NCBI GenBank assembly: GCA_964348695.1
Contig: CAYGDI010000001.1
Span: forward strand, 159,473-223,472
DNA from: an uncultured Candidatus Saccharibacteria bacterium
GTDB taxonomy: Bacteria > Patescibacteriota > Saccharimonadia > Saccharimonadales > Saccharimonadaceae
Length of the DNA: 64,000 nt
Direction: 5' to 3'
Below the pieces are notes generated by a model. That model did no database searches and was not told the DNA's origin. It was given only the letters and a program-made list of their open reading frames with translations. Shown here piece after piece: positions 38,735 to 56,947 of this stretch. Position numbers and translations under genes: made by a program. Each line of letters begins with the position of its first letter. Within the stretch, counting starts at the first letter, position 1.

Positions 38735-38797
38735 TAAACCTCTACCATTATACCGCACAGGTACTATATCTGCATGTCAAAAGTGCTACCAGGTATA

Positions 38798-40312
38798 TTA
38801 TTGCTTGAGTTTGTCGAAGTTGTCTCTGGCATAGCAGATGCCTTCTTCGACAGTTGTAAACTCGCCATTGATTTGGGCTTCGTAGATTGCCTTTAGCATC
38901 ATGCCTAAACCAGGGCCTTCTTGGAGACCAAGCTCGAGTGCGAGCAGGTCTCTGCCAAATACCAATTTTGCTGGAGGTTGCTTGTCTACTTCGAGCTCCA
39001 TTGCTCTGGCATATATATCGTACGATGCAGTTTTTTCCTGGAATGTATCACCACGACCATTTGAGTCGCTACGACAGACCAGGTCCCACAGACGTATACT
39101 GGCTGGCTGCAGGCGCAGAGCAAGTTTGCGGATCTGTTTTTCATTTGGTTCAGGGTTGCCAACATGAAACATGTGATTCTTGACGATCGGTATGACTTTT
39201 TGGACGATATCTTTTTTGATGTTCAGAGTTGCCATCAACGTTCGGGCTGGCTCTTCTCCAGCAATGTCATGTCCATATGCAGTGATACGCATTACATCAT
39301 TTTTCAATCGTCTTTCTGTGGTTGTCGCTTTGCCCAAATCGTGACAAAGTGCACCTAGTAGCACTGTCAATACATCGTCTCCTTCTAGCTGTTCCATACG
39401 AACGATTTTTGCTGCTGCATCAACAACTAGCATTGTATGATTCCAGACATTACCTTCCGGGTGCCACTCAGCCTCTTGTTCGATTTGCTCCAGGATATCT
39501 AGTTCGGGGTGTAGCGTACTGAGAATACCAATCTCTTTTGCTAGTTGCAGACCTATGCTTGGCTTTTCGGCTTTTGTGAGTAGTTTTATCCACTCCTCTC
39601 CGATTCGTTCTTTGGAAAGTTCCTGCAGATCAAGCGTGCGACATAGTTCAGCGGTTTCCTCTTCCATAGTCATATCAAATCTTGCTGCAAACTGCATGCC
39701 TCGCAATACTCGCAGCGGATCGTCGGCGAACAACTCTGGATCGGTTGCACGCAAGACCTTATTTTTGATGTCACCCATCGCCCCGTACCAGTCATGTAGT
39801 TCACCTGTAATAGGATCAAGCGCCAGTGTGTTCATAGTAAAATCACGACGTCGCGCGGCCTCCTCGATAGACATATGCGGGTCGCCTGTGACCTGGAAAC
39901 CTTTGTGCCCTTTGTCTACTTTTGAGTCACGACGAGGTATCGAAAAATCAATCACATTGCCAGTGTGTGGGTTGGTTAGTTTTGCAATACCAAAACTCTG
40001 TCCAACGAGATCAATTTTTCCATATTGCTCGAGCAACTGCTCCATAGTTTCAAACGCCAGCCCGTAGACTTCAATGTCGATATCTTTTGATGCTGTATCT
40101 GTGTCGTGCGTAGCATCGATAACAAGATCTCTGGCAAAGCCGCCGACAACTAGTGCTTGTCCGCCAGCTTCCGCGATTGCAGTTGCGCAGGTATGAGCAA
40201 GTACTAGATCGGCAGATGTGCTAGGATCTTGTTCGGTATCGGCCAAAGACAAAAAATCAGCAAACTGTAGATGCTGAGCTGTGTTGTGTATATCTGGGTT
40301 ATATTCTGACAT
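38798..40312 (-). CDS. cca: CCA-adding tRNA nucleotidyltransferase with HD domain
   Basis: GGFARDLV...DIDIEV, RRDFTMNTLA and the HD motif CHDLGK. Confidence 0.88.
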   Translation of the reverse strand: MSEYNPDIHNTAQHLQFADFLSLADTEQDPSTSADLVLAHTCATAIAEAGGQALVVGGFARDLVIDATHDTDTASKDIDIEVYGLAFETMEQLLEQYGKIDLVGQSFGIAKLTNPHTGNVIDFSIPRRDSKVDKGHKGFQVTGDPHMSIEEAARRRDFTMNTLALDPITGELHDWYGAMGDIKNKVLRATDPELFADDPLRVLRGMQFAARFDMTMEEETAELCRTLDLQELSKERIGEEWIKLLTKAEKPSIGLQLAKEIGILSTLHPELDILEQIEQEAEWHPEGNVWNHTMLVVDAAAKIVRMEQLEGDDVLTVLLGALCHDLGKATTTERRLKNDVMRITAYGHDIAGEEPARTLMATLNIKKDIVQKVIPIVKNHMFHVGNPEPNEKQIRKLALRLQPASIRLWDLVCRSDSNGRGDTFQEKTASYDIYARAMELEVDKQPPAKLVFGRDLLALELGLQEGPGLGMMLKAIYEAQINGEFTTVEEGICYARDNFDKLKQ

Positions 40313-40377
40313 ATGTATAAAGTTATTATAAAAAAGTGTAGGTACTAGAGGGCGCTGCGGCCCTCTAGTACCCTGCG

Positions 40378-40683
40378 TTACCGATGCTGATCCTCGAGTA
40401 CTTGGCGTGTGACTTCTCGTCCGAAGAGTCTTATCATCAGCGCAGCGAATATGACTGCTGGAATTAGCATCACAGTCATGACCATCAGCGGATCTTTGGC
40501 GCTAACCATTGTGTAGGCCAGCAAAAATGCCGCAACGAATGCGTAGAGAGAAAACAGCCAGGCTTTTGCCGGTGTGAACTCGAACTTTTGCTTGTTGCGC
40601 ATTGATCGCCAGACGACAAACAATGGTGCTGCGTAGTAGAGCGACAGTAACGAATACGTCGCCCACGTCGGTATTGTGTGCAT
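40378..40683 (-). CDS. hypothetical small membrane protein (3 TM)
   Basis: 101 aa, hydrophobic. Confidence 0.5.
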   Translation of the reverse strand: MHTIPTWATYSLLSLYYAAPLFVVWRSMRNKQKFEFTPAKAWLFSLYAFVAAFLLAYTMVSAKDPLMVMTVMLIPAVIFAALMIRLFGREVTRQVLEDQHR

Positions 40684-40747
40684 CCCTTTCTCACTTTCGA
40701 TTGTTGATTAGGATTATTACTACAATACAATATTTATATGAGATATG

Positions 40748-42103
40748 TCAAGCGTCTTTAGCCTTGCGATCAAGAGACATAAACCGTAGTCTCTCTGGGT
40801 GGAAGTACAGCTGCAGCTTGCCAGTCGGTCCGTTACGGTGTTTTGCGATGATCAGGTCGGTAATATGCTGGTTGTCGGTGTCAGGATTGTAATAATCTTC
40901 TCGGTACAAAAACATCACGAGATCGGCATCTTGCTCGATAGATCCAGACTCACGTAGGTCGGCTAGTTGTGGGATCTGAGGGTGTCGCGATTCAACTGAA
41001 CGGCTTAGCTGCGACAGTGCGATTACCGGTACATCGAGCTCACGAGCGATGAGTTTGAGCCCACGTGATATTTCACTAACCTCTTGTACTCGGTTGTCGC
41101 TGTTGTTGCGCCCACTACCCTGCATGAGCTGGAGGTAGTCAACGATGATCAACCCTAGCGGGTGGTTGTGAGCTTCTCGCCGCGCTTTTGTGCGCATCTC
41201 TAACACACTTAGCCCAGGGGTATCGTCAATAAAGATCGGCGCCTCGGCCATTTCGCCCATAGCGTCTGATAATTTAGAAAAATCATTGTCGCTCAAATTT
41301 CCAGTACGTATTTTGAAAGCATCTACCCCACTCGCATCTGCTAACATACGATCTACCAACTGGTCTTTGCTCATCTCGAGGCTAAAGAACAGTACGGCTT
41401 TCTTTTGTTGAGATGCTATATTGTATGCCAGATTTGATACAAAGGTTGATTTTCCCATAGCTGGACGAGCCGCGAGAATCAGCAGGTCAGATTTTTGTAG
41501 GCCTGCAGTTTTGTTATCAAGGTCTTTGTAGCCTGTTGGCACACCGCGTAGACTACCTTTGTTTCGGTGTAGCTCTTCGATACGGTCGAAGCTTTCGTTG
41601 AGGATTGACTCTAAGCTGACAAGATCTTGTTTTAGGCTGGCATCTGAGACTGAGAAAAGATCAGCCTCTGCCTGACCGAGCAGTTCGGCTATTGATTTGT
41701 CTTCGTCGTAGCCTAGTTCGGCTATTTCACTACTTGCTTTTATGAGACGACGACGCACTGCTTTGCTGCGGACGAGTTCTGCATAGGCAGTAGCGTGAGC
41801 CGATGTTGGTACGTAGTTTGTGAGCTCTGTTAGGTAGCTCGCTCCGCCTACAGTATCTAATAATTTCTTGCCTTTTAGCTCGTCGCTCAGTGTCAAAAGG
41901 TCCACGGGTTTGTGTTTTTCGTAGAGGCGCATGATCGCCGCAAACACCGCTTCGTGACGTGAGTCATAAAAATCAGCGGGTTTTACTTTGTCACTAATAT
42001 CAGCTAGCACATTGTCATCAATCAAAACCGCACCGAGCAAACTCTTTTCGGCGTCTATGCTTTGTGGTGGAATCTTTCCCTCTTGTTTAGGCTTGGCTGA
42101 CAT
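40748..42103 (-). CDS. dnaB: replicative DNA helicase
   Basis: PPQSIDAEKSLLGAVL, Walker A ARPAMGKST and IIVDYLQLM. Confidence 0.96.
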   Translation of the reverse strand: MSAKPKQEGKIPPQSIDAEKSLLGAVLIDDNVLADISDKVKPADFYDSRHEAVFAAIMRLYEKHKPVDLLTLSDELKGKKLLDTVGGASYLTELTNYVPTSAHATAYAELVRSKAVRRRLIKASSEIAELGYDEDKSIAELLGQAEADLFSVSDASLKQDLVSLESILNESFDRIEELHRNKGSLRGVPTGYKDLDNKTAGLQKSDLLILAARPAMGKSTFVSNLAYNIASQQKKAVLFFSLEMSKDQLVDRMLADASGVDAFKIRTGNLSDNDFSKLSDAMGEMAEAPIFIDDTPGLSVLEMRTKARREAHNHPLGLIIVDYLQLMQGSGRNNSDNRVQEVSEISRGLKLIARELDVPVIALSQLSRSVESRHPQIPQLADLRESGSIEQDADLVMFLYREDYYNPDTDNQHITDLIIAKHRNGPTGKLQLYFHPERLRFMSLDRKAKDA

Positions 42104-43475
42104 TCACTTCTTCTCCTCCACCCATAATAGCAGTAATCGAAGAGATGCCCTTGTCGGCAGTGGGTAACTTGTCTACAGATGTGGAGATCGTGGGGACAAC
42201 GCCAAGTTTTTTGTGTAAAAACTCAGTCAACATATCGCGATATTTGCCCTGATCAAGCTTTTTTTGGTGTAGTTTGAACCCAAATGTGATCGAGATCATG
42301 TCTTGATCCCCCACTACGATAGCTTTTTGCATGATGCCGTATAGCGGTGGGTTTTCAGTGCGCAGATCATTGAGCAGCTCGTCCCATTTGAAAGCAGCAG
42401 TCTTTTTCTTTTTTGTTTGCACTGGTGTCGCTGGTTTGGGTTCTACGGGCTGAGTTGCTTTTTTGAGGGTTTGGGTCGGAGGTTCAATCGTAATGGTGGT
42501 ATCTTTTGACGTGAGTGCAACATGTTTTGGCTTTTCACTACTAGAATGTTTTGCAACGATGCTGAGCAGTTTGAGTTGAGGATCGTACGAACGGCCTATC
42601 TCTATTAGCTCATCAATGAGAGGTATGAGTTCTGTGTGGGTTGCAATCTGGGAGCGTAGATATTGTGTCAGCTGGTCGCTCAACACAACTGGTGATATCC
42701 CTTGTTGCTCTAGCTGGTCAATTGTGTGAATCGCCTTTTCCATATGGTGTTGTAGTATGTGGTCAACTAGTTCGATTACGCTCTCGGCAGGCGCTAGCCC
42801 TAGGGCTTGTTCGATAGTATCAGCTGTGATCGTTTCGTCACTGATGCTACGTATTTGATCTAGGATCGATATGCCATCGCGAAAACTACCACCAGAACGC
42901 TGGGCTATGAGAGTCAGTGCTTTTTTGTCTATCTTGATCTTTTCTTTTTTTGCTATTGCTGCCAAATGCTGGGTCATTTCATCGGTAGCTATGGGTCGAA
43001 AATGAAATCGTTGTGTGCGACTGAGTATTGTATCTGGTAGTTTGTGGACTTCGGTAGTCGCTAGTATGAACACGACGTGTTCCGGTGGTTCTTCGAGAGT
43101 TTTGAGCAGCGCGTTAAAGGCAGGCTTTGATAGCATATGAACCTCGTCTATGATATAGACTTTTTTATCCGCGCTGACTGGTGCTATGGTCACCTTTTCT
43201 CGCAGATCGCGTACATCTTCTACTCCGTTGTTGCTTGCGGCATCTATTTCGATAATATCCAGGTTCATGTTGCTGCTGTACGGTATTTTGTTGATCTCGT
43301 GTGCGAGAATACGAGCAATTGATGTTTTACCCACTCCGCGTGGGCCAGTCAGTAGATATGCATGATTTATATGACCATTCTTGAGTGCACGAGACAATAT
43401 ATCAGTGATATGCTGTTGACCCACTATTTCGCCTAGCGACTTCGAACGGTATTTTCTGTACAGAGCTTGCGCCAT
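42087..43475 (-). CDS. dnaX: DNA polymerase III subunit gamma/tau
   Basis: LYRKYRSKSLGEIVGQ, GPRGVGKTS, DEVHMLS and SRTQRF. Confidence 0.95.
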   Translation of the reverse strand: MAQALYRKYRSKSLGEIVGQQHITDILSRALKNGHINHAYLLTGPRGVGKTSIARILAHEINKIPYSSNMNLDIIEIDAASNNGVEDVRDLREKVTIAPVSADKKVYIIDEVHMLSKPAFNALLKTLEEPPEHVVFILATTEVHKLPDTILSRTQRFHFRPIATDEMTQHLAAIAKKEKIKIDKKALTLIAQRSGGSFRDGISILDQIRSISDETITADTIEQALGLAPAESVIELVDHILQHHMEKAIHTIDQLEQQGISPVVLSDQLTQYLRSQIATHTELIPLIDELIEIGRSYDPQLKLLSIVAKHSSSEKPKHVALTSKDTTITIEPPTQTLKKATQPVEPKPATPVQTKKKKTAAFKWDELLNDLRTENPPLYGIMQKAIVVGDQDMISITFGFKLHQKKLDQGKYRDMLTEFLHKKLGVVPTISTSVDKLPTADKGISSITAIMGGGEEVNVSQA

Positions 43476-43561
43476 ATTGTTTATTTTGTACCCCTCATAC
43501 TCCCTAATCTTGTTATTATTATACGCCTATATCCATTGTTTTTTGACGTAATTTTTACGAT

Positions 43562-44227
43562 TTATGGCATTAGTTTACTAGTTACCAATACTCTTTTTTC
43601 ATATTGATTGGTTTTTTTGTCGAATTTGCCGCCGCAGGTTATCAGATTTAGCTGATTTTCTATTGATTCTGATTGTTCGTACATCTTTTTGGTCGTTTCA
43701 TCTGGTGAGTACTCTTTGACGCTCACTACTTCGAAAGTTTTTGTCGTTTGATCACCAAACTCTATCTTGTATTTGTCACCCACCTGCAGCTGCTTCAACT
43801 TTTTGAATATCCCTGGATTGTATTTGCCGCTGACATGACCGTCAATGATACTAACACCTTTTTCACCTGGCAGTGGTGAGTTTGTATACCAGCCCGCCAG
43901 ATGTATATTGCCTGGCACTGCTATTGCATTGTCCTGATCTACACCGACACGTATGATACAGCCATCGCTATCTATACTGGGCAATATGATTTTGCGAGGT
44001 TGATCCTCTGCTACCTTGTGTGCTGCACAGTTTGGCTTGGTTTCTTCGGGATCGTCAGTTGAATTTGTTAGAGTTTGGTTGCTGATTGGTGATGCTGGTT
44101 TGTGGGTAGCTTGGTACTGTTGCCAGAATACCAAGACGCCGAAGACTATCAGCGCAATTGCAAATATCGTCAAGACGGTAGCACTATAGCGTTGTAGCTT
44201 CGTTTTTCTTCCAACCTTTTTGATCAC
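43562..44227 (-). CDS. sortase-family transpeptidase
   Basis: N-terminal TM anchor, IDGHVSG..., catalytic LNLITCGG and a C-terminal R. The start is uncertain (GTG 44227; the ORF extends to 44332 but that part carries the promoter-like TGCTAGAAT). Confidence 0.75.
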   Translation of the reverse strand: MIKKVGRKTKLQRYSATVLTIFAIALIVFGVLVFWQQYQATHKPASPISNQTLTNSTDDPEETKPNCAAHKVAEDQPRKIILPSIDSDGCIIRVGVDQDNAIAVPGNIHLAGWYTNSPLPGEKGVSIIDGHVSGKYNPGIFKKLKQLQVGDKYKIEFGDQTTKTFEVVSVKEYSPDETTKKMYEQSESIENQLNLITCGGKFDKKTNQYEKRVLVTSKLMP

Positions 44228-44296
44228 AACCTCCGAAATTCTGCTATTAACGTATATTCTAGCACAAGCATGTTTGAGATTCTGTATAATATAAGT

Positions 44297-44689
44297 ATGA
44301 ACAAAGATATTAGTGACTACAACAAAAGACAAGAAGAAATCAATCGTGCTATTTGTGAGCTATTGGCTAGCGAAATACAAACAGTTTTGAATGGCAAGAC
44401 GGACAGCAAAATCTGGCACGGTGGGCCGGTGTGGTTTAGCGACGGTAATCCTATTGCTGGCTATGATGTGCTAAAAAACTGTGTGCGATTGCTGTTTTGG
44501 AGCGGCCAGGACTTTGACGAGCCAGGTCTAAAGGCTGAAGGCTCATTCAAAGCCGCCGAAGCTCGCTACACCAGCCCAGATCAAGTAAATGTCGAAGATG
44601 TACAGCGTTGGTGCCAAAAAGCCCTAGATATTCAGTACAACTACAAAGATATCGTCAAAAACCGCGGTCAACTAGATCGTTTGAAATAA
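44297..44689 (+). CDS. DUF1801 (YdhG-like) domain protein
   Basis: 130 aa. TATAAT lies 6 nt upstream of the ATG (leaderless-type). Sequence pattern WHGGPVWF... Confidence 0.55.
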   Translation: MNKDISDYNKRQEEINRAICELLASEIQTVLNGKTDSKIWHGGPVWFSDGNPIAGYDVLKNCVRLLFWSGQDFDEPGLKAEGSFKAAEARYTSPDQVNVEDVQRWCQKALDIQYNYKDIVKNRGQLDRLK

Positions 44690-44706
44690 ACACACGTGGT
44701 GTAAGA

Positions 44707-45300
44707 TCAAATATCTTCTACCAGCTTTTCTAACATAATTTGCAGCGGTTTTTCATCTCCGTGGTAGCCTATGGCGCATGCACCAATATTTTCTTTGCTG
44801 TTCATTCTATTCCAAGCAATACTTTTACCAGCGTTAAATGCCAAGAGGCTCAAAAAGGTTCGAATGACCCGTCCATTACCCTCTCTGAAAGGATGGATAA
44901 TATTTAACTCGCAATAGTAGTGAGCAATCCGCTTAATAAAATCATCAATCGAAAGATTATTCAGATTATCTTCACGCTTTAACTCCTCCAATAACTCTAT
45001 CGCCGAGCTCTCTATATGCCGCGAGTGAGCAAAACGTGTCTTATCTTTCGCCAGTTCTATTCTGCGTATTTCACCGGCCCAGTCATATATATGTGAAAAT
45101 ACTTGTTTGTGTATTTCACGCAGCAACTCCAGATCAAACACAGTAATAGCGGGACTTTCAATCAAGATTGTACTAATTTCAACGGACGTGATCTCTGCTT
45201 CTACTTGTTCCAGTTCACTTTGCGTTTTGATATTCAGTAAATTATGCAATACTCCAGTATCCGGATTAAAATACGGGTCATTGGCAACATCGTACGACAT
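44707..45300 (-). CDS. fic: Fic-family protein (AMPylase-type toxin)
   Basis: Canonical Fic motif HPFREGNGRVIR within a 197-aa protein. Confidence 0.9.
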   Translation of the reverse strand: MSYDVANDPYFNPDTGVLHNLLNIKTQSELEQVEAEITSVEISTILIESPAITVFDLELLREIHKQVFSHIYDWAGEIRRIELAKDKTRFAHSRHIESSAIELLEELKREDNLNNLSIDDFIKRIAHYYCELNIIHPFREGNGRVIRTFLSLLAFNAGKSIAWNRMNSKENIGACAIGYHGDEKPLQIMLEKLVEDI

Positions 45301-45307
45301 GGCTGTC

Positions 45308-45499
45308 TTACTTGTTATTAGAGTTTGTAGTCATTTCTTGGATAGTTACTTTGCGTAACTTGCTAGCTGTCATTTTGCCACTAGCGTATTCATTCAGGCG
45401 TTGTTGAGTATTTTTAGAGGGTTTTAGGCCTTCTGCCCGCACTGATCCTATTGCAGCATTAACTGCCTTTTGTCTAGCCGCGACATTTGACTTATTCAT
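45308..45499 (-). CDS. VbhA-like antitoxin of class I Fic toxins
   Basis: 63 aa, 7 nt upstream of fic. It carries the inhibitory (S/T)xxxE(G/N) motif as SVRAEG. Confidence 0.75.
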   Translation of the reverse strand: MNKSNVAARQKAVNAAIGSVRAEGLKPSKNTQQRLNEYASGKMTASKLRKVTIQEMTTNSNNK

Positions 45500-45571
45500 G
45501 TTTTAATTATATCACAATACTACGTTACGATCAATACTTTTAGCTTATGCTTATCTGTGTGGAATAATCTG

Positions 45572-46030
45572 CTAGAAATCTGCGATAACGAGTTTTTTCA
45601 TTTGCATCATTTTTTTGAATGCATCTGGTTTGCTCATTAGTTCGCCCATGTTTTCGGGGACGACTTGCCAGCTCAGGCCGTATTGGTCTTTGCACCAGCC
45701 GCATTGTTCGTTCTCAGGGTTTTTGGATAATTTTTCCCAGTAATAGTCGATTTCGGCTTGGTCTTTGCAACTGATCGAGAATGATACAGATTCGTTAAAT
45801 TTAAACTCAGAGCCTGCGTTGATAGCGACAAATGGTACACCGTCTAGCTCGAACTCGACTGTCAGCACATCGCCAGCCAAGTTTTGCTGAAAGTCAGCCA
45901 GCCCTTCCTCGGCCGTTTTCGGATAATATTCGGTAGATGTTATTTTGCTGTTCGGAAATACCGACACATAATAATCAACCGCTTCCTTTGCGTTACCATC
46001 GAACCATAAATTTGCTGTGATCTTTTGCAT
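45572..46030 (-). CDS. VOC-superfamily protein (PhnB / 3-demethylubiquinone-9 methyltransferase-domain type)
   Basis: MQKITANLWFDGNAKEAVDYYVSVFPNSKI is the family's typical N-terminus. Confidence 0.75.
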   Translation of the reverse strand: MQKITANLWFDGNAKEAVDYYVSVFPNSKITSTEYYPKTAEEGLADFQQNLAGDVLTVEFELDGVPFVAINAGSEFKFNESVSFSISCKDQAEIDYYWEKLSKNPENEQCGWCKDQYGLSWQVVPENMGELMSKPDAFKKMMQMKKLVIADF

Positions 46031-46092
46031 AACTCGCCCCTTTGCTTATGTTCTAATTATATATTAATTCACAATATGAGCAGCACACAATG

Positions 46093-46845
46093 TCATAGTT
46101 GATTCGCCTCTTCTACCAAACGAGGTAAAGTTAAGCCATATTGCCTCTTCATTTCTCTCATACGCCAAATACCTCGTAGCATATCGTTGTGGCAATTTTT
46201 CACCTTATCACCCGAATTGCAAACGCAGCGATGGTTGGCCCCGTACTTCTTGCTCAATAGATAGAAAAATAGCTTTTCACCAGTTAACTTAATAATGTCT
46301 CGGGCGGTTGTGACTAGGTCTTCCCGTGTAATATTGGCAGCTCTTGCAAACCACTCGAATAGGCCAAGGAAATGATGGCTTAGCTCGCCCCAGGGCCAGT
46401 CGTGGTACTTTTCGTAATACGACTGAGCGTATAGGCGTGGGATGAGGAAATTAGTTATATATTTTTCGAGATTGAAAGTTTTATCAAAAGCGCGGGTAAG
46501 ATCTCTTGGGCCTGAGTCACACAGAAAGTTTGGTAGAGTTTCATATACGTGTAGATCGGCTAAGCGCTTTCCTAGACTCGCCGATAAAGCTTCGACACGT
46601 CCGCCTATTTCTTCTGTAAAAGGATACTTGTAGCCTGGCTGCCAGCGTATACGAACTTTGTAGCGGTCCTCAATGAGCATACCTTTGTCGGCTAGCCTTG
46701 CAATATCTACGGCAGATGGGTTTATGACAACCTGTTGGCCGTCATAAAGCGCCTTAAATGGCACCCATCCTTCAACAAACTGCCCTTTGTGGTATAAGGG
46801 CAGCTTGGCAGTTTGAAGCCACTGCAAATCTTCATCGGACCACAT
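46093..46845 (-). CDS. hypothetical protein with a possible UBC/E2-like core and a C-terminal SEC-C-type CxC...CH motif
   Basis: ATG lies 4 nt after the NTase stop (alternative TTG at 46887). Motifs are YKYPF..., LHVYETLPNFLC (H-x9-C) and CVCNSGDKVKNCH. Confidence 0.6.
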   Translation of the reverse strand: MWSDEDLQWLQTAKLPLYHKGQFVEGWVPFKALYDGQQVVINPSAVDIARLADKGMLIEDRYKVRIRWQPGYKYPFTEEIGGRVEALSASLGKRLADLHVYETLPNFLCDSGPRDLTRAFDKTFNLEKYITNFLIPRLYAQSYYEKYHDWPWGELSHHFLGLFEWFARAANITREDLVTTARDIIKLTGEKLFFYLLSKKYGANHRCVCNSGDKVKNCHNDMLRGIWRMREMKRQYGLTLPRLVEEANQL

Positions 46846-46849
46846 GGGT

Positions 46850-47884
46850 TTAGTAACCCCAGGGTTGACTTGGGGTTGGAATAACAACCCGCTGTGTAAA
46901 AACCGGAGCGGCTGTACTGTTCGCTTCTTCTACAGACGTAAGCTTGTCTAGTAAGGTAGCCACTTCTGTTACCGAGCTAGCACGAGATAGGCTTGCAACC
47001 AACCTAGCTGCCTCTTGCTGCAAGCCAAGTATTAATTTGCGGCCTTCATCGGTCAGCTTATCTTCAATATACTGGTCTACATACTGGGTGCTGTCTGCTC
47101 GGTCTGGATAATGTGGAGCATCAAGTCGTTCTGCTAGCAGCGCAATACTACCTCCTATAGATTCGAGAGTATTTGCGCCTGGGTTAGTCTGGAAGTGCTC
47201 AACACAGACCTGTTCTAAATGGAATGATTTCAGTATGAAATTATCTTCGTGGTTGACTTTTTGCTTGTGTCGCCATGACTTGACTACCTTTACAGTCTTG
47301 CGAAAAGTACCTTTGGTATCGGCATCGAGCTTTGTTGCTGCAGAGATGTAGCCCTTCGGATCCGATTTAATCCAACCGATTGGGCTGTGGGCTTCGTTTT
47401 CATAGCATTCGACACGTTTTTGATGGCTAGCCTTTAATATTTCGGGCACGATATATAGTGGGTCGCCAAACTCATTAGTCTCGCTGTCTGAAGTTACAGC
47501 TGGCACGACATCGATACTGAAGGATTCTGGAGCATCATCGTCATCAAAAACTATCGTCACGGAGTGTGTTTGGGCGATAATCTCTTTGATCTTACTAATC
47601 TTGCTCTTCATGTAGGCTTCTAGCAACACGGCGCGCAACTTAGCCATGACCTTTTGGGGATCGCTTAGTACGGCATTGTCAGGTAGGACGTAGATTACAT
47701 CCAGATCGTGTACCGGGTCGATGGCGGTAAAGCGTGCGTAAGAACCGGATTGGAAGCAACTATTGCCAAGAAGTGTGCACAGCTCCGCGTATTTCTTGGT
47801 TATGTAATCCCGCTGTTCCTGTTTTGGTGAGAGGTTCTTCCGTACGTAGTTGTCAATAGACTGTGAAATTTCAGTAGTATTCAT
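46850..47884 (-). CDS. SMODS / CD-NTase-like nucleotidyltransferase
   Basis: The Pol-beta NTase core has GSYARFTAIDPVHDLDVIYVL (G-S...D-x-D) and a third acidic residue in FSIDVVPA. An OAS1-C-like helical region follows (VKSWRHK...LKSFHLE). Confidence 0.75.
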   Translation of the reverse strand: MNTTEISQSIDNYVRKNLSPKQEQRDYITKKYAELCTLLGNSCFQSGSYARFTAIDPVHDLDVIYVLPDNAVLSDPQKVMAKLRAVLLEAYMKSKISKIKEIIAQTHSVTIVFDDDDAPESFSIDVVPAVTSDSETNEFGDPLYIVPEILKASHQKRVECYENEAHSPIGWIKSDPKGYISAATKLDADTKGTFRKTVKVVKSWRHKQKVNHEDNFILKSFHLEQVCVEHFQTNPGANTLESIGGSIALLAERLDAPHYPDRADSTQYVDQYIEDKLTDEGRKLILGLQQEAARLVASLSRASSVTEVATLLDKLTSVEEANSTAAPVFTQRVVIPTPSQPWGY

Positions 47885-48361
47885 CTATTTGTCCTCCGGA
47901 TAGGTACTCATCAGTGCAAAAACGTCAGAAATTAGCCGCAGCGGCGTGTTGCACATGGACTGATGTGAGTAGCTCTGTAGCAGCTTCATGTCATCATCGT
48001 TAATGTGTGTTGGCCCGGCATACACAACCACCGGTATCTCTTTGTTCTTCGCTGCATTGAAGACCTTTTTGAAGTCATCTGAGTTGGGAGTATAGCCGAT
48101 AATAGCCAGACGACTGCCGTTGAGTAAATCAGCTTCCCGATTGTCGGACGCAGCTTCACCAACATTGAAGAAACCGACGCGCTTTAATAGTTTTGCCTCG
48201 TGCTTCATTGGTTTATCGGCGGTGCCAATTACACAGATTGGCCGTTTAATATTTTTGAAGAGACGACGCTCCTTCTTGTGGAAGAAACTAAGCCACACCG
48301 CCGCTCCAACGAAGCCACCTACGAGTGGCCAAAGAGTTTGAATTGTAGACCAGGGGTCCAT
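47885..48361 (-). CDS. single-pass membrane protein with a cytosolic Rossmann-like alpha/beta domain
   Basis: ATG follows GAGGG plus 5 nt. TM segment WPLVGGFVGAAVWLSFF. Alternating beta-alpha pattern (ICVIG / AIIGY / PVVVYA). Its stop abuts the NTase ATG. Confidence 0.65.
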   Translation of the reverse strand: MDPWSTIQTLWPLVGGFVGAAVWLSFFHKKERRLFKNIKRPICVIGTADKPMKHEAKLLKRVGFFNVGEAASDNREADLLNGSRLAIIGYTPNSDDFKKVFNAAKNKEIPVVVYAGPTHINDDDMKLLQSYSHQSMCNTPLRLISDVFALMSTYPEDK

Positions 48362-48509
48362 GGTTACCCTCACTTTCGTGAAATAAATTTATATATGTTT
48401 TGTTTTTCCAGCTTTAAACTAGTAATTTTTGTTTTTGCAAGAGGTTGGGCTTTTGCCGGTTGATCGCCTTTCAGTCAATCGGTTAAAGTCTGATATTCTT
48501 GATACAAAA

Positions 48510-48538
48510 ATATTATCACAAGCAATTTGAAAAGTCAA
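48510..48538 (-). promoter_or_regulatory. sigma70-like promoter of the three-gene NTase cassette
   Basis: Minus strand reads TTGACT-17 nt-TAATAT, about 150 nt upstream of the ATG at 48361. Confidence 0.45.
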
Positions 48539-48569
48539 CATATATATTGTCTATTATGCTTATGCTTAA

Positions 48570-50225
48570 TCAATTATAGCTACGACGAGTTGCGACTATC
48601 GCAAATGCGCTGGCGGTGAAGAGGGTGATAGTTAGCAAGTTCTCTACTATATTTGGCTGCTGTGGGGCGAAACCTGTGTTTGGCGCATCTGGGGCGTTTG
48701 CAATACCTACTGGGTCGACTATGGCGCCATTTGCAGTGCCGTCAGTGTCATATGGGCCACCGTCTGTTAGGTTGTAGGTCACAGTGGTCTTTTGCACGCC
48801 GCCGACTGTTGTAGTGCCGAATGTTGCGCCTGCAACGGTAGTGTATGCGTGTGTGGTTGGGTTGTAGTGGCGTAAGACGGCTTTGCTAGTGTCGTAGACT
48901 TTGTCATAAATGATTGTGACCGGAACAGTTGCGCCAGCTGTTGGGCAATATAGTGTAAAGCCTGTGAGGTTGATGATCGGGCTGAAACCGGTGTCGGTTG
49001 CTAGGCTGCTAGCGGCGGTAGATTCTGGTGTATCGAGTGTGCAGCCACCTGCGCTAGGTACTGTCACAGTGCTGAATACCCCATTTGTGTCGCTGATTGA
49101 ACCTACGTAGGGCTGGAAGCTGTCATCTGTGCTGTCGCCGTTGGCGTCGCCTAGGTTTGGTACAGTTGGGCTTTCAAAATCTGCGATGCCTCGTAGTGTT
49201 GGGTAGCCAGTTGTTGTTTGCCATACGTTCGTGAAATCCCAAGCATTTAGCGGTGCATTTGTACTGTTGTTTTTGAAATAATTTGGCGTGCTATTGCCAG
49301 AGTTTACACCTGTACAGACACTACCACCTCCGCAGGTACTAGTGCCGTTACTAGTAATATCAAAGTAGTTGTTGGTATATGTGCCACTACCGTTAGAGCC
49401 GACCAAACCACCGTAACTACTGCCACCAGTGCGTGCGACTGCCGAGAAACTATTGCTGACTGCGGTTTGGTTGACTCCTACTAGCCCGCCGTTATACTGG
49501 CTGCTGTTTGCGTTGAAAGTCATACCGGAATACACTCGGTTGATTGTTCCGCTAAAATTTGCCCCCGCGATACCACCTGCATAGCTAGCATTTGAGTTAA
49601 ATGTTCCGCTAGAAAAACTGTCGGTTATAGATGTGCCAGAGTCCCATAGATCACCTACCAAACCGCCAGTATAAGACGAATTGGTAGTGATGGAACCACT
49701 GAAAGAACTCTTTGAAATAGCTGTGGTGCCGTTCACATCACCTACTAGCCCGCCGCTGTAAGCCGCGCTAATACTATTCAATGTCATACCCGAGTGGACG
49801 TTTGTAAATGTGCTATTGCCATATGATGATGCGGCAAAACTGCCAATGTATCCGCCAGTAACGCTACCACTGACTATCCACAGGTTTTTGATTGCGCCGC
49901 CGTTTACGCTTTCGAAGAGCCCTTTGTCGTCAACATTGAGGTTTGTAATCTTGTTGTTGCGGCCGTCTAGTGTGCCTGTGAATGTACCAAGATGGGTAAA
50001 GCTAACTCCGTTGCAGTTGATATCTGAAACCAAAACATAATAACCTGCAAGATTATTGTTTATTTCCTGAAGTTGGCTACAGTTTGCTATGCGGTATGGG
50101 CTGCCACTAGTACCTGCGCCGTGACCGGTGAAGGCGCTGGCTGGTGTGGAAGTAACGAAGATTTGCAAGGTTAGTAATAAAGCAATGAACAATGAGCCAG
50201 TTTTCACCCTCTGCAGTACTCGCAC
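48570..50225 (-). CDS. secreted GLUG-repeat surface protein with an APNTG sorting signal
   Basis: Signal peptide, at least 5 GGLVG/GGIAG repeats, and a C-terminal DAPNTGF plus hydrophobic segment plus RRSYN. Confidence 0.8.
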   Translation of the reverse strand: MRVLQRVKTGSLFIALLLTLQIFVTSTPASAFTGHGAGTSGSPYRIANCSQLQEINNNLAGYYVLVSDINCNGVSFTHLGTFTGTLDGRNNKITNLNVDDKGLFESVNGGAIKNLWIVSGSVTGGYIGSFAASSYGNSTFTNVHSGMTLNSISAAYSGGLVGDVNGTTAISKSSFSGSITTNSSYTGGLVGDLWDSGTSITDSFSSGTFNSNASYAGGIAGANFSGTINRVYSGMTFNANSSQYNGGLVGVNQTAVSNSFSAVARTGGSSYGGLVGSNGSGTYTNNYFDITSNGTSTCGGGSVCTGVNSGNSTPNYFKNNSTNAPLNAWDFTNVWQTTTGYPTLRGIADFESPTVPNLGDANGDSTDDSFQPYVGSISDTNGVFSTVTVPSAGGCTLDTPESTAASSLATDTGFSPIINLTGFTLYCPTAGATVPVTIIYDKVYDTSKAVLRHYNPTTHAYTTVAGATFGTTTVGGVQKTTVTYNLTDGGPYDTDGTANGAIVDPVGIANAPDAPNTGFAPQQPNIVENLLTITLFTASAFAIVATRRSYN

Positions 50226-50335
50226 TTAAATCCCCTCGTATAAGTATTGGTTATGATTATAGATAATGAGCGTAAGCGAGTCAATCTATTTTCATCGGGA
50301 TTGAAAAGGAATCTAAATGGTGTTGTAATGTATAT

Positions 50336-50713
50336 ATGAAATACCATGGGGAGTTCGAGAGGTTCGTTGACGAACTGAGTGTTGTCGATCTAGTAGAGGC
50401 GGTAAATGAACGCACTTCTTATCTGTCTTTTTTTGAATACGAAGATCATGATGAGTTTTTGAGGTTAGTTGATATGGGCGAAGAGGCGCTGCCTGAGCTT
50501 TTCGATGCCCTAGCGAACAGTGAAATCGATGGCTGGATATGTTTTGTTGCTATAGGCAAGATAGCAGACGATCTGAGGATGCCCAGAATACCTATGCCCG
50601 AAGGTGCTATAGGCGACTACACTATGGACTACGACGTAATACGCCAAGCTTTTGTGGACTATGGCGATGAGCATGGATTTGTTGTTCGTGATGGAGAAAG
50701 CCATACTGCCTAA
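50336..50713 (+). CDS. hypothetical acidic protein
   Basis: 125 aa with normal composition. A -10-like TGTAAT lies 6 nt upstream of the ATG. Confidence 0.5.
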   Translation: MKYHGEFERFVDELSVVDLVEAVNERTSYLSFFEYEDHDEFLRLVDMGEEALPELFDALANSEIDGWICFVAIGKIADDLRMPRIPMPEGAIGDYTMDYDVIRQAFVDYGDEHGFVVRDGESHTA

Positions 50714-50731
50714 GATCTAAGGTTGCTGATC

Positions 50732-52651
50732 TTAGATTTGTCTTTGTGCCACAGTGAAGCTGTGAGCTAGTAGCCCGAGTCCAATGAAAATCATAATGAT
50801 GTACAAGGCATAGTCAAACTCTTGTATACCGGTATTTGGAGCGCCTGCGGCGCTAGATGCAGACGAGCCGCTAGGGCTAAAGACTGCAGGGCCTGCCGGG
50901 TCGACAATGACGCCGTTTGCTAAACCATCATCATCTAATGCTCCGCCGTCGGTCACTTGGTAGCTGACGACTAGGACTGACCTACCGCCAATAGTTTGTG
51001 TTGAAATATTCGCAACCGAAACTGTCTGGTAGCTGCCATTTACGTATTTGCGCAGTGTAAAATCTTGTGCTGGTGGGTCGTAAAAATACTGTGTTACAGT
51101 GGTCGTAAAGCCTGGTGTGCCACAGTTTGCGGTGAAATCTAGCAAGCCCAGTGGGTATGTATAGCTAGTATCGCTACCAAGATCGCTAGCGCGTCGTAGC
51201 TGAGTGCTGCTGAGGGTACAGCTACTGTTGACAACCAGTGTGCTGTACTCTCCCGTGATGGAATTTACGATCGATGTGACATGATCTTGGGTGGAATCGT
51301 CTGTACCGTCATCGTCACCGTCGCCGCTATTTGGAGCTGCTCGTTCGGTGGCATTTTCTATACCATCGCCATCATCGTCATTTGTAAGGGTGAGTGTCGA
51401 TGTTCCAACGTTGTTAGTAATGCCGGAAAGTCCCGAAACGCTGGCAGAAGAGATGGTGTAACTACCGGCTATGGCTGATTGAACAGGTACAGAAACAACA
51501 CAGTTTGCACCACCAGAGACGGTACCTCCGGTAATAGTCACCGTGCTACCACCTGTGTTTGCAGTCAGCGTACCGCCACAGCCGTTTGTCTTTGTACCAG
51601 AACCTAGCACAAGGTTGTTCGGTAGTGTGAATGTGTATGCCAAACTGTTTGCCGATGTCAGCAATGTGTTGACGATAGAGATGCTCATCTGTACAGGCGT
51701 ATCGAGCTCGGCCGAAGATGATGCTAGTGAAGCGTTGAGGTTTGTCCCCTGTTGTGTGGCGAACTGTTCTAGACTGGCGGTTTGTGTACCCGGTGTAGAA
51801 CCTAAGTTCCACTGTGTCATCAAACCTGCATCGTGGTTACTAGCTGTCACAACATAGCCGATATTACCACCGGACTGAACGGTGCCATACGGTACACTAA
51901 AGCTTTGTGAAGTTGCGCCATCGAATATCTTTGAACCTGAAATTTCGCGGAATCCGAACATGATTTGTGACGAAGTATTGAGTGATATCACAGAACGCAC
52001 GGGCGAAGTCAGCATGATACCGTAACCTTGGTCTGAAGAGCCTGGTGCGGTGTCACCACCTAGATAAAATTTGACGGCTTCGGTATTGCCATCCGGTATT
52101 GTGAATGTGTACGAATCTGTCACATAGTCGTTTGGATATGTATAGGTGACGGTACGATCCATTGTGTACGTCATGCTGTTTTTGACTGCAGTATAGCGTA
52201 CAGTTGCGGCTGAATTGCCTGTCGTCGAGGTTCGCGTGCCAGTCGATGTTGCGCCAGAGGTCGAGATGATTTGTATAGATGACCAGTTGGCTGCACTACC
52301 TGCTGGTCCTGATTGTCCGTATAATGTTCCTCCAACATTGAGCATCGGCGCACCTGCACCGCAACAATATTGCCTGGTTGCACGATAAACTACACCGTCT
52401 TGGCCAGCCACTGCAGAGTCGTAGCTAGAGCCACCTGGGGCTGAATTGATAGTAAAACGTAGTCCGTCAGAGCCGTTAGTTTGTATACCACCACCTGGGT
52501 TGAGGGTGACTTGTTCTACGCCTCCCTGCCCACTAGCGGCGTTCGCATCTGAAGCGGCGTAGATGAAACCTAAAGTCGCAAGAATGACGAGCATAGCGCC
52601 AATGAACGCTTGTATAGATATGTGTAGTATATTTCGTTTCTGTTTGTACAC
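50732..52651 (-). CDS. secreted surface protein with an APNTG sorting signal
   Basis: Signal peptide, Thr/Ser/Gly-rich beta-rich body, the shared C-terminal module VTDGGALDDDGLANGVIVDPAG, then GAPNTGI plus a TM segment plus a basic tail. Confidence 0.8.
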   Translation of the reverse strand: MYKQKRNILHISIQAFIGAMLVILATLGFIYAASDANAASGQGGVEQVTLNPGGGIQTNGSDGLRFTINSAPGGSSYDSAVAGQDGVVYRATRQYCCGAGAPMLNVGGTLYGQSGPAGSAANWSSIQIISTSGATSTGTRTSTTGNSAATVRYTAVKNSMTYTMDRTVTYTYPNDYVTDSYTFTIPDGNTEAVKFYLGGDTAPGSSDQGYGIMLTSPVRSVISLNTSSQIMFGFREISGSKIFDGATSQSFSVPYGTVQSGGNIGYVVTASNHDAGLMTQWNLGSTPGTQTASLEQFATQQGTNLNASLASSSAELDTPVQMSISIVNTLLTSANSLAYTFTLPNNLVLGSGTKTNGCGGTLTANTGGSTVTITGGTVSGGANCVVSVPVQSAIAGSYTISSASVSGLSGITNNVGTSTLTLTNDDDGDGIENATERAAPNSGDGDDDGTDDSTQDHVTSIVNSITGEYSTLVVNSSCTLSSTQLRRASDLGSDTSYTYPLGLLDFTANCGTPGFTTTVTQYFYDPPAQDFTLRKYVNGSYQTVSVANISTQTIGGRSVLVVSYQVTDGGALDDDGLANGVIVDPAGPAVFSPSGSSASSAAGAPNTGIQEFDYALYIIMIFIGLGLLAHSFTVAQRQI

Positions 52652-52752
52652 CTTTTCCCCTATTGATCCCAGTTCTCACACTTTTGTAGGATACTTATGA
52701 TCAAGAATACTACTGTAGTCAAAAAAACACAAGCTTAATCTTTTGCGAACTA

Positions 52753-53739
52753 TTATTGAAAAAACAAACTCCACACGTAAAATAGCCCGAAAAGAACAAG
52801 TAATACGATTGTGGCTACAGGTACTTTTGTTGCAAGACGTTTGCCTGGTGCCGCGATGACATTTTGACTGCGGTCACCTACCCGAGAATCGGCGTAGTAG
52901 TCGGTCTGCTCGGTGAATTCTTTGTTCAAAAGATTGGCGATACTCACGATCTCTTGCAAGCGTTTGGCATCTGTGAGTTTGAGCTTTGACGGTGAATATA
53001 GATATAGTGAGTCGTCGATAATTTCGCAGTCGTAGTCATGAGCGGCATCTATCATAGCCTGCATAACATCAGGTGTAAAGACGTACAAAGCATCGGTTTT
53101 GTACTGTGCTGGTGCGAAGAGTGTGAAGTGTGAATTAAAATCTCCTTCTAGCTCTAGTTTTTGATCATTAGAAAATCCTGTTGGCAGATTGGTGAATTTG
53201 CCAAAGAGATTGTTCTTTTTTGCATCGAGCACCATGTGAGGTAATCTCCGCGGCAGTTTGATACGAACATATCCGTAGTCGTGTGTTTGTCTATTTTTTC
53301 CACTACCAGTTTCGTATTGGTAGTTGCCTATTTCGGCAAAAGCTTGATTGGCGGCACTTAGTACAGAAGTAAACTCTTGTGAATCGCCTTGTTGGAATAT
53401 CAAGCCTGGGCGACCATCAAATCCGAAAGATTCTTTGTATGTTAGGTTGTTTTGTTTTGCAAATTCTTTCAGGCGAATATGTTTTGCTGCTGAAAAGTAA
53501 AGACCTATGACAACAACGAGTATGAATACGCCTATAAAGAAAAAGAAAAAAGCATTTTCTATCAGTATGAGCGCCAGAAACATACAGGTAAACGCTATGA
53601 CAACAGCAGCGGTATATGTGATAATATTTGTTTCGAAACTACCTGCTCCATGTGCGATTCTTTCTTTGAAAGTGACTTTTCTCGAAAGAGCCGAGTAATC
53701 AAGTGGCTTGTTGTTCGTGATACTACCCTCGCTGTTCAT
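52753..53739 (-). CDS. hypothetical membrane protein (2 N-terminal TM, 1 C-terminal TM)
   Basis: 328 aa. TGTTATAAT lies 8 nt upstream of the ATG (leaderless-type). Confidence 0.6.
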   Translation of the reverse strand: MNSEGSITNNKPLDYSALSRKVTFKERIAHGAGSFETNIITYTAAVVIAFTCMFLALILIENAFFFFFIGVFILVVVIGLYFSAAKHIRLKEFAKQNNLTYKESFGFDGRPGLIFQQGDSQEFTSVLSAANQAFAEIGNYQYETGSGKNRQTHDYGYVRIKLPRRLPHMVLDAKKNNLFGKFTNLPTGFSNDQKLELEGDFNSHFTLFAPAQYKTDALYVFTPDVMQAMIDAAHDYDCEIIDDSLYLYSPSKLKLTDAKRLQEIVSIANLLNKEFTEQTDYYADSRVGDRSQNVIAAPGKRLATKVPVATIVLLVLFGLFYVWSLFFQ

Positions 53740-53794
53740 ATGAAAGTATTATAACATCTTGGATATTGTAAAAGCCGACGGAGGTTTGGTGACC

Positions 53795-53968
53795 TCACGC
53801 CGGCTTGAAACGAAAGAACATTTTGAGCCACTGGAGTACTCGGCTCGGTGTTCGTTCGCTGTGAAAAAGTGAATTGACTGCACCGCAATAGCGGCAGACG
53901 ATTCTGGCTCCTATGCCATTTTTTAGCAATTTGCTTGTCTGAGTGTGTTTGCATTCTCTACAGATCAT
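53795..53968 (-). CDS. small zinc-ribbon protein (CxxC...CxxC)
   Basis: MICRECKH...IVCRYCGAV. AAAGGAG lies 11 nt upstream. The start is uncertain. Confidence 0.4.
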   Translation of the reverse strand: MICRECKHTQTSKLLKNGIGARIVCRYCGAVNSLFHSERTPSRVLQWLKMFFRFKPA

Positions 53969-54040
53969 GCCCTGTACTACTCCTTTTTGCGTGGTTTGCA
54001 AAAAACCAATATCTACATGTTACTACACAATATGTCTAAA

Positions 54041-54661
54041 TCATTTAGAAATGATTGGTGATTTTTGGACAAAGCTATTTTGTTCGAGGACTTGCAAAAT
54101 TGCGCTGGCTACCTCGTCGCGGCCAACATATGGTTTGGTAGGCCCGTTTTCACGTAGTGTGAAGGGTTTTTCGGCGACATTCTGTAGTTTGAGTACCCGA
54201 ATAACTGTCCAATCTACATCACTTTGCTCTAGTAGTTTGACGTGTTCTATGCCGTCTTTGACACGGTTTGGGTCGACGATACTGATACCGAGGTTTAAGA
54301 ATCTATCTAGAAGCGTTATTTTGTCGCCAGGAAAGCGCACGCCAGTACCTGTCAGGCTGACGATACGTGTGACGCCTGTGGATTTCATGCAATCTATAAC
54401 TGTAGATATAGCCTGAGTCTGCACATGAGCTGGTGAACCTTTGACATGGCCGATCAGGCTGACGACTGCATCGCAGCCAGTGATAAGTTCCTTGACCTGA
54501 TCTGGATTTGTTGCATCGCAATCAACTGTGGTGAGTTTCGGGTTATTTGGCAGGTAGCTTTTGCCTAGTATGCCACCGCGGACCTGGTGGCCAGCATCGA
54601 GCGCCTTTTGTACAAACGCTTGCCCACTACGGCCATTGGCTGCAATAACGGCAATTTTCAT
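54041..54661 (-). CDS. NAD(P)-binding atypical SDR (NmrA/BVR-B-like)
   Basis: MKIAVIAANGRSGQAFV matches the GxxGxxG variant of the NAD(P)H-binding family. Its ATG overlaps the heliorhodopsin TAA (TAATG). Confidence 0.75.
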   Translation of the reverse strand: MKIAVIAANGRSGQAFVQKALDAGHQVRGGILGKSYLPNNPKLTTVDCDATNPDQVKELITGCDAVVSLIGHVKGSPAHVQTQAISTVIDCMKSTGVTRIVSLTGTGVRFPGDKITLLDRFLNLGISIVDPNRVKDGIEHVKLLEQSDVDWTVIRVLKLQNVAEKPFTLRENGPTKPYVGRDEVASAILQVLEQNSFVQKSPIISK

Positions 54662-55425: not shown

Positions 55426-55485
55426 AATCGCAATATAACATAAGCATATTAAAAATGCCTAATATTGTTTTTGTTGCAAGTTGTT

Positions 55486-55998: not shown

Positions 55999-56132
55999 GT
56001 ACTCGCATGTTCCTATCTGTCTGTTTTTGACTTATTTCTATCCCTCGCAGAATACCACTCATACCCCCTTTTAGTCAACAGTTTTCTTTTCCACAACAAA
56101 ATATGAGGTAAGGAGAAAAGCGTTGTAAAAAA

Positions 56133-56908: not shown

Positions 56909-56947
56909 GTCTCTCCACCTCGCTACATATGTGTGGGCGGGTTTAGC

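Follow-up and report, generated by a model that had tools for sequence, protein, structure and literature searches.

The window, a stretch of 64,000 nucleotides from an uncultured Candidatus Saccharibacteria bacterium, carries at 46093..48361 a cassette of three tightly packed minus-strand open reading frames (ORFs), as seen from the ORF list and its translations, that is likely to be a type II-short, or E2-only, operon of CBASS, the signalling system against phage that is based on cyclic oligonucleotides. The assignment is made because all three proteins match CBASS models in PADLOC. A small transmembrane (TM) protein matches 'Effector 1TM' (E-value 1.1e-8), an oligonucleotide cyclase of the CD-NTase type (nucleotidyltransferases resembling cGAS and DncV) matches Cyclase PDLC00785 (3.3e-79) and a protein resembling ubiquitin-conjugating (E2) enzymes matches E2 (3.5e-27). 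We infer the biochemistry of the cassette and its antiphage function by analogy with systems that have been studied. E2-only CBASS is a defined class that accounts for 616 of ~2,200 type II systems (PMC12948482). The cassette is therefore of a catalogued and ordinary kind, and what is new here is a sub-family with variant features, in which a short cyclase is paired with an E2-like protein ending in a SEC-C zinc knuckle; this sub-family is experimentally unstudied, and no experimental study of it was found in the literature searched.

An earlier note on this DNA, made from the letters alone, had described the same three parts but did not recognise their combination. Its domain calls are borne out: PADLOC and Pfam support the SMODS/CD-NTase cyclase and the SEC-C-bearing E2-like protein, and a structure model supports the TM protein with a beta/alpha domain. 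The novelty that it saw in the combination is not, as each component has its own PADLOC CBASS model and the arrangement effector, cyclase and E2 without an E1 (ubiquitin-activating) enzyme or a JAB peptidase already carries a subtype name, type II-short or E2-CBASS (PMC12948482). An apparently exotic cassette is thus reclassified as a catalogued type of defence system, with its odd features explained as traits of the family. Public records of such proteins carry no CBASS annotation, the names being 'nucleotidyltransferase', 'SMODS domain-containing nucleotidyltransferase' or 'hypothetical protein', because Pfam sees only SMODS and a sub-threshold SEC-C and the matches to CBASS cyclase models of NCBIfam stay under the cut-offs. 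Literature searches on SEC-C with CBASS, on CBASS in Patescibacteria and on TIR proteins with an E2-only regulator found nothing specific.

The E1-E2 fusion and JAB peptidase of the Cap2/Cap3 type II systems are seen neither in the operon nor in its neighbours. No E1 or JAB was present among the Pfam-annotated genes within 10 kb of the cassette, and the E2-like protein itself has no match to ThiF or JAB in Pfam. What is present is the stand-alone E2 of 250 residues by which type II-short CBASS is recognised. As in type II CBASS with Cap2 (E1-E2) and Cap3 (JAB), an E2-family domain is proposed here to act on the C-terminus of the cyclase, and the protein also matches a PADLOC E1-E2 model (2.9e-12); unlike in those systems there is no E1 adenylation domain. 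The closest studied counterpart is the E2-CBASS of S. marcescens (SmCdnG, SmE2 and a 2TM-SAVED effector), which likewise has three genes with a lone E2, no E1 and no JAB.

The cyclase matches Pfam SMODS (1.2e-9) and, judged by its GS, DxD and third-Asp motifs, is a catalytically intact CD-NTase. The GS...DLD and IDVVPA motifs and the ...PWGY ending reported from the letters were all confirmed by translation, the last as PSQPWGY. When the family profile was searched against the PDB, the closest solved structures were P. aeruginosa CdnD and E. coli CdnC of HORMA-TRIP13 type III CBASS (6P80, 6P82, 6P8J and 6P8U; 3e-18 to 7e-15), while the only other match named as a CD-NTase was 7LJM (8e-4). Since other CD-NTases are so much weaker, the cyclase is placed by sequence closest to CdnC/CdnD and not, like the studied E2-CBASS cyclases, in clade G. 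Unlike the CdnC/CdnD systems, the operon has no HORMA or TRIP13 protein, and the cyclase has an insertion of ~25 residues and a tail that is predicted to be recognised by the E2. CdnC and CdnD make cyclic tri-AMP.

This insertion relative to CdnC/CdnD lies at 47374..47487 (-), cyclase residues ~133-170, and is conserved as NEFG.PLY.VPEIL..NH..R..RY. Other CD-NTases have protease-sensing activation loops, variable and disordered, at roughly this position (PMC12991175). Considered as such a loop the insertion differs in being conserved in sequence.

It is hardly credible that the protein is instead a non-signalling nucleotidyltransferase of the MNT, KNTase or AbiEii toxin-antitoxin type with unrelated neighbours, as the earlier note had allowed for. 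Its Pol-beta nucleotidyltransferase motifs are generic and, as mentioned, its NCBIfam scores are sub-threshold, but searches of Pfam, NCBIfam and PADLOC turned up no MNT, KNTase or AbiEii model, the matches to CBASS cyclases and to the CdnC/CdnD structures are strong, and both neighbouring genes are co-conserved. The PADLOC, Pfam and PDB matches, taken with the co-conserved neighbours, refute this reading.

The C-terminal tail of the cyclase is distinctive. Counting P-[WY]-[GSA]-x(0-8) at the C-terminus, the motif is present in 84 of 98 short homologues (320-365 residues) and in none of 16 long ones. The third position is Gly in 22, Ser in 24 and Ala in 38 of the 84, and the motif is trailed by 1 to 8 residues, exactly one in 65 of them; this variable ending is most simply explained by its removal. 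The ~20 residues before the tail (about 318-337) are hypervariable in an alignment of 32 homologues, with insertions and deletions, and are rich in Pro, Ala, Ser and Thr.

In S. marcescens, the 162-residue SmE2 is a cysteine protease, acting through C101 and H87, which cuts the cyclase behind its conserved G406 and so takes off E407. The resulting thioester between G406 and C101 interconverts with an isopeptide bond to K159 of SmE2, modulated by H152, and SmE2 can build chains of cyclase that activate signalling (bioRxiv 10.1101/2022.05.25.493364; PMC12948482). At the end of the window cyclase there is similarly a small residue with a presumably removable one behind it, G343-Y344 in place of G406-E407. 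The ending ...PWGY rather than Gly, which had been noted as an oddity, is therefore what the E2-CBASS mechanism predicts. There are also clear differences. In the studied E2-CBASS family only the Gly is reported to be conserved, whereas in the window family the tail PxQPW[GSA]x is strongly so. The window cyclase has 344 residues compared with 407 for SmCdnG and is CdnC/CdnD-like rather than of clade G, and after its core the sequence suggests only a helix and the variable Pro/Ala/Ser/Thr-rich linker, with no sheet motif. This contradicts a recent generalisation that E2-CBASS cyclases are long, with a ubiquitin-like E2-binding motif.

The E2-like protein matches seven PADLOC E2 or E1-E2 models, with E-values for E2 from 3.5e-27 to 3.4e-10. 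A HMMER scan of 1.84 billion representatives gave 626 relatives (clusters at 50% identity), most of 210-265 residues. Conservation was counted over 138 homologues that are 20-46% identical to the window protein, and in these the predicted active-site residues H99 and C109, presumed counterparts of H87 and C101 of SmE2, are invariant. The H-x9-C spacing equals that of HPN...Cys in eukaryotic ubiquitin-conjugating enzymes (UBCs) and differs from the H-x13-C of SmE2. Alignment with four eukaryotic UBCs in hhalign was weak (probability 4-11%, E 0.01-0.003); in its register YKYPF lies on YPFKPP, and H99 and C109 on H75 and C85 of UBE2D2. A few family members also have weak Pfam matches to E2-ntca, UEV and RWD. 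As in SmE2, the His/Cys pair is followed by a second invariant His, H157, which is a candidate counterpart of H152 because the spacing from the Cys is similar (48 residues compared with 51). At 250 residues the protein is ~90 longer than SmE2, the difference being a helical extension and the invariant SEC-C knuckle.

The knuckle of the window protein, CVCNSGDKVKNCH, has the C-x-C-x8-C-[HC] pattern of SEC-C (PF02810), and translation confirmed it together with YKYPF and H-x9-C (HVYETLPNFLC) as they had been read from the letters. Taken alone the window protein is below the Pfam threshold for SEC-C (E 0.22), but PF02810 is matched by 64 of the 138 homologues (best 2.5e-9) and the family profile matches SecA zinc-finger peptides in the PDB (E 2.6e-4). 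By these matches the knuckle is real at the level of the family.

Two relatives have unusual architectures. One of 566 residues (P0244) is a natural fusion of a SMODS cyclase (Pfam ~10-124) with an E2-SEC-C protein (393-562). Another, a giant of 1988 residues (P0286), resembles the helical part of the window E2 around WPW...H157 (residues ~113-188) in 12 separate stretches, and in Pfam matches only fragments of DUF5774, DUF7378, DUF6362 and MerR.

Taken together these features suggest a mechanism by analogy with the S. marcescens CdnG-E2 pair. The E2 would dock on the cyclase tail, ...P-S-Q-P-W-G343-Y344, and C109 and H99, acting as a cysteine-protease-like dyad, would cut off Y344 and capture G343 as a thioester with no involvement of E1 or ATP. 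As there is no E1, activation would have to come from cleavage of the peptide bond and not from ATP. The cyclase would then be held on the E2, or moved to lysines of the E2, of the cyclase or of other targets, setting whether it is restrained or primed. Phage infection would shift this balance so that the cyclase makes a cyclic oligonucleotide, which would bind the cytoplasmic flavodoxin-like domain of the effector and lead to oligomerisation, membrane damage and aborted infection.

Several observations weigh against this mechanism or against the class assignment itself. An AlphaFold2 (AF2) model of the E2 built from nine sequences, with the order helix, beta-meander, loop and long helices, which fits a UBC, has a mean confidence (pLDDT) of 68 that falls below 50 around H99/C109, H157 and the knuckle. 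A Foldseek search of the PDB with this model returned only noise (best match CorA, E 0.13), because the model is poor. Searches of the PDB with the E2 sequence and the family profile retrieved neither SmE2 nor Cap2, giving no more than a single UBC (E 0.36) and the SecA zinc-finger peptides, so that the studied E2 is reached only by way of the PADLOC E2 models. No clearly conserved Lys that could match K159 of SmE2 comes after H157; no column between positions 147 and 201 has >=40% Lys, and the nearest partly conserved Lys/Arg are at 146, 202 and 213-216. The cyclase is shorter than the studied E2-CBASS cyclases and, from its sequence, probably lacks the helix and three-stranded-sheet E2-binding motif typical of them (PMC12948482), which at 344 residues sets it apart from the long clade-G type. 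Its scores against the NCBIfam CBASS cyclase models are below cut-off, and in ~14% of homologues the residue after W/Y is not small, which leaves the position of cleavage uncertain. Finally, neither Foldseek nor PDB profile searches gave the effector domain a specific structural relative or known ligand. The E2-like call of the earlier note is upheld by the PADLOC match and the invariant H99/C109, while the UBC fold, which the AF2 model and Foldseek do not confirm, would rest on profiles and on the register of the motifs and not on structure.

Some of these points would fit a different role for the E2-SEC-C protein within the same class of operon, as a non-covalent tail-binding regulator or a phage sensor, for example via the knuckle, with H99 and C109 used in some other way. 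The apparent lack of a conserved acceptor Lys, the probable lack in the cyclase of the ubiquitin-like E2-binding motif of SmCdnG (PMC12948482), the extension and knuckle that have no counterpart in SmE2 and the unconfirmed E2 fold are all compatible with this. It would seem unlikely, though, as a His/Cys pair that is invariant and spaced as in UBCs speaks for catalysis, the residues beyond the tail motif are most simply read as being removed, and natural cyclase-E2 fusions exist.

The effector matches the PADLOC model C3a59 (TM) at 5.5e-22 in addition to 'Effector 1TM', and among 32 family members all match the former and 30 the latter; the papers that the literature gave under the label C3a59 were all unrelated. 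In the AF2 model (pLDDT 85.7) a single long N-terminal helix, residues 3-38, is followed by a five-stranded beta/alpha domain that is flavodoxin/CheY-like. The TM segment, TLWPLVGGFVGAAVWLSFF, is followed by the basic stretch HKKERRLFKNIKR, from which, by the positive-inside rule, we infer that the globular domain is cytoplasmic, where the nucleotide signal could bind. Foldseek matched the model to generic flavodoxin-like folds (receiver, SIS and DNPH1; E ~3e-4 to 3e-3, TM-score 0.45-0.58), the best being receiver domains (E ~3e-4, TM-score 0.5-0.58). A response-regulator receiver was rejected, as the conserved residues (R33, N37, R40, E55, D78, D124, Y131, N138, P140, R142, S145 and D146) are not at the positions typical of receivers, the acidic pocket (DD behind beta1, D behind beta3), T/S behind beta4 and K behind beta5. 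No SAVED, CARF, SLOG or TIR signal was seen in Pfam or among the top 50 Foldseek PDB matches, none of which was specific, and sequence and profile searches of the PDB found no match. There is a weak PADLOC match to Mem_04, a type III CRISPR membrane protein (E 0.025), the model for which is described as possibly a CARF diverged beyond recognition. Of the earlier suggestions for this protein, the one TM helix, the beta/alpha domain and the receiver-like fold hold, while SLOG and TIR do not.

Small membrane-anchored effectors with a cytoplasmic ligand-sensing domain, presumed to act by disrupting the membrane, are known in CBASS as Cap14 (2TM-SAVED) and Cap15 (2TM beta-barrel) (cited in bioRxiv 10.1101/2022.05.25.493364). 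The window effector resembles these in being small, membrane-anchored and encoded beside the cyclase, but its single TM helix is joined to a five-stranded flavodoxin/CheY-like domain with no similarity to SAVED, CARF or the beta-barrel, and it differs in the same way from the 2TM-SAVED effector of S. marcescens. At 158 residues the protein is very small; it is single-pass and highly conserved, and its putative ligand domain is of an uncharacterised kind.

The earlier note had proposed co-conservation of the three genes as a check, and the trio does recur, at 50% (in Parcubacteria) and 41% cyclase identity and across loci from GTDB. A scan of GTDB representative genomes, in which the best cyclase match was 50% identical, returned 64 loci, and all ORFs in these were searched with hidden Markov models. 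The loci are mostly from Patescibacteria (Saccharibacteria, Parcubacteria, Peregrinibacteria, Microgenomates lineages and others), with a few from Proteobacteria, Bacteroidota and archaea, and in most of them the effector gene lies directly upstream of the cyclase. Two mutually exclusive architectures are seen (loci L010-L073). In ~28 of the 64 the effector is followed by a short cyclase (320-360 residues) and an E2-SEC-C protein. The remainder are two-gene systems, with the architecture of type I CBASS, in which a homologous effector lies upstream of a cyclase with a core 35-44% identical to that of the window; here the cyclase is long (434-499 residues), with a C-terminal AGS_C domain (PF18134, ~316-440) and no tail motif, and there is no E2 gene. 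Tailed cyclases occur in the GTDB loci only where an E2 gene adjoins, and three E2-linked loci (L021, L045 and L065) have no recognisable cyclase tail. Given this exclusivity, a single cyclase-effector pair seems to be regulated in either of two ways, by AGS-C in cis or by the tail with the E2 in trans.

The cassette also appears to be mobile. A 3.8-kb block containing the 3' end of a surface-protein gene, the three CBASS genes and a VOC-like gene is shared with a second lineage at 99.8% nucleotide identity, compared with only 77% for the flanking DnaX/DnaB DNA of the two loci (L002 and L001, the latter being window 36850..57884 reversed, at 99.995% identity). On the right the block stops precisely where the VOC-like gene ends, and its left edge is a contig end, such that the block may extend further. 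The difference in identity indicates that the cassette has recently been transferred horizontally from lineage to lineage, the VOC-like gene apparently going with it. No clear compositional island is seen, with 45-47% GC in the cassette and 41-49% locally.

These distributions bear on whether the operon might be a housekeeping second-messenger module of candidate phyla radiation bacteria, controlling a membrane protein in envelope or episymbiosis physiology and not acting against phage. The effector is unusually conserved (64-73% identity in the closest clade, compared with 44-51% for the cyclase and 31-37% for the E2), the family is concentrated in Patescibacteria and the window neighbourhood contains surface proteins and a sortase, as might be expected of such a module. 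It is very unlikely, however, since all three families are those of PADLOC CBASS models, the distribution is patchy with recent transfer of the cassette, and in other loci SAVED effectors are the partners of this E2 family. The flanks, moreover, differ between loci and include neighbours of defence type: L006 has an AAA_15/AAA_21 ATPase, L008 a LexA-like gene, and L076 both a LexA-like gene and an N6_Mtase.

The packed layout of the cassette was reproduced at the junctions given in the earlier note. The TAG of the effector ends at 47885 and abuts the cyclase ATG at 47884, and the cyclase TAA (46850-46852) is separated by 4 nucleotides from the E2 ATG at 46845. The ATG starts are backed by homologues that begin at identical residues, and a GAGGG Shine-Dalgarno sequence precedes that of the effector. 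The TTGACT-17-TAATAT site and its ~150-nucleotide leader were located as claimed. As an operon promoter the site is only plausible, because promoter-like matches in the region are not enriched (6 found compared with 4.9 expected from shuffles). The intergenic region containing the leader is 208 nucleotides long; the leader has no match to an RNA family in Rfam, and its sequence is not conserved in one distant homologous locus. The only Rfam matches in the window are a ribosomal protein L10 leader at 58575..58700 (-), with 71.5 bits, and one tRNA at 29887..29958 (-).

The neighbourhood agrees with the earlier description (Table 1). Downstream of the cassette come a VOC-like gene (PF06983), the VbhA/Fic pair, DUF1801 and a sortase; on its upstream side are the genes of two large surface proteins. 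The VbhA/Fic pair is found in L001 and L003 and is absent from L002, making this flank variable. The surface proteins end in A-P-N-T-G, next a hydrophobic helix and then basic residues, much like a sortase sorting signal. A heliorhodopsin gene ~6 kb from the cassette and the gene content of a small genome fit a host among the Patescibacteria, and with the sortase and with relatives that bear names they make a host resembling Saccharibacteria probable.

Table 1. Features of the cassette and its surroundings, in window positions; functional assignments are predictions
Feature	Position	Strand	Remarks
Gene A, effector	47885..48361	(-)	158 aa counted from ATG; alternative GTG 12 nt upstream
Gene B, CD-NTase / SMODS oligonucleotide cyclase	46850..47884	(-)	344 aa
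Gene C, E2-like with C-terminal helical extension and SEC-C zinc knuckle	46093..46845	(-)	250 aa counted from ATG; alternative TTG at 46887
TM segment of effector, residues 9-27, then basic stretch	48281..48337	(-)	Kyte-Doolittle maximum 1.57; helix 3-38 in AF2 model
Catalytic G47-S48 ... D60-L-D62 of cyclase	47699..47746	(-)	Invariant in 32 diverse homologues; translation checked
Third catalytic Asp D125 of cyclase, within SIDVVPA	47510..47512	(-)	Invariant in 32 diverse homologues
Cyclase tail PSQPWGY, predicted E2 recognition/processing site, predicted cleavage after G343 freeing Y344	46853..46873	(-)	Homologue tails; cleavage by analogy with SmE2 (bioRxiv 10.1101/2022.05.25.493364)
Predicted active-site loop H99-x9-C109 of E2 (HVYETLPNFLC)	46519..46551	(-)	H99, C109 invariant in 138 homologues
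H157 of E2, after WPWGELSH motif, candidate counterpart of second active-site His (H152) of SmE2	46375..46377	(-)	Invariant in 138 homologues
SEC-C type knuckle C207-x-C209-x8-C218-H219 of E2	46189..46227	(-)	Conserved 100/99/99/91% in 138 homologues
Promoter-like site TTGACT-17-TAATAT, with upstream TG	48510..48538	(-)	Consensus match only; ~150 nt before effector ATG
3.8-kb shared block	45572..49371 = L001:8514-12313 = L002:1-3800	.	blastn, 99.8% nucleotide identity to second lineage
VbhA antitoxin (63 aa) and Fic toxin (197 aa)	44707..45499	(-)	Downstream of cassette
Two large surface proteins and nearby sortase	48570..50225, 50732..52651, 43562..44332	(-)	Surface proteins Gly/Ser/Thr-rich
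Heliorhodopsin gene (PF18761, 254 aa)	54661..55425	(-)	~6 kb from cassette

The E2-SEC-C protein is not confined to operons of this kind. Homologues also follow CBASS operons with SAVED effectors, where the cyclases are of 403 residues (tail ...RPASPHSERQV) or 314 residues (tail ...PSKPWGLSDYYVDL). At a further locus (L074:2560-4759; GCA_020054605.1, JAHZTR010039724.1) an E2-SEC-C protein of 252 residues (P0340) comes directly after a ThsB-type TIR protein (PADLOC ThsB 2e-61 / PDC-M50B). This has an extra C-terminal stretch of ~35 residues ending in ...NPAKPWSC, the same tail motif as in the window cyclase; upstream are a membrane protein, PDC-M50A, and a small HNH protein, and there is no cyclase. 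It seems that the tail and E2 module regulates the TIR enzyme as well. Because the E2-SEC-C protein follows both SAVED-CBASS cyclases and a tailed TIR protein, we tentatively raise the possibility, which is still somewhat doubtful, that the tail P-x-x-P-[W/Y/H]-[G/S/A]-x(1-8) and the E2-SEC-C protein form a portable, E1-independent regulator that clips and conjugates its client. If so, the client would be recognised by the tail alone and not by a ubiquitin-like E2-binding motif of the SmCdnG type. On one cyclase family the module would take the place of the AGS-C domain, and it would also have been grafted onto the ThsB-type TIR enzyme of PDC-M50, a candidate system that resembles Thoeris and lacks a cyclase, with the invariant zinc knuckle serving in recognition of the client or in sensing infection. 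The alternation of AGS-C and E2 on the same cyclase-effector pair amounts to a natural experiment on the roles of the two regulators. Patescibacteria have tiny genomes and few defence systems, and it is in them that this large sub-family of a short cyclase with an E2-SEC-C protein, amounting to the 626 E2 clusters at 50% identity, is concentrated.

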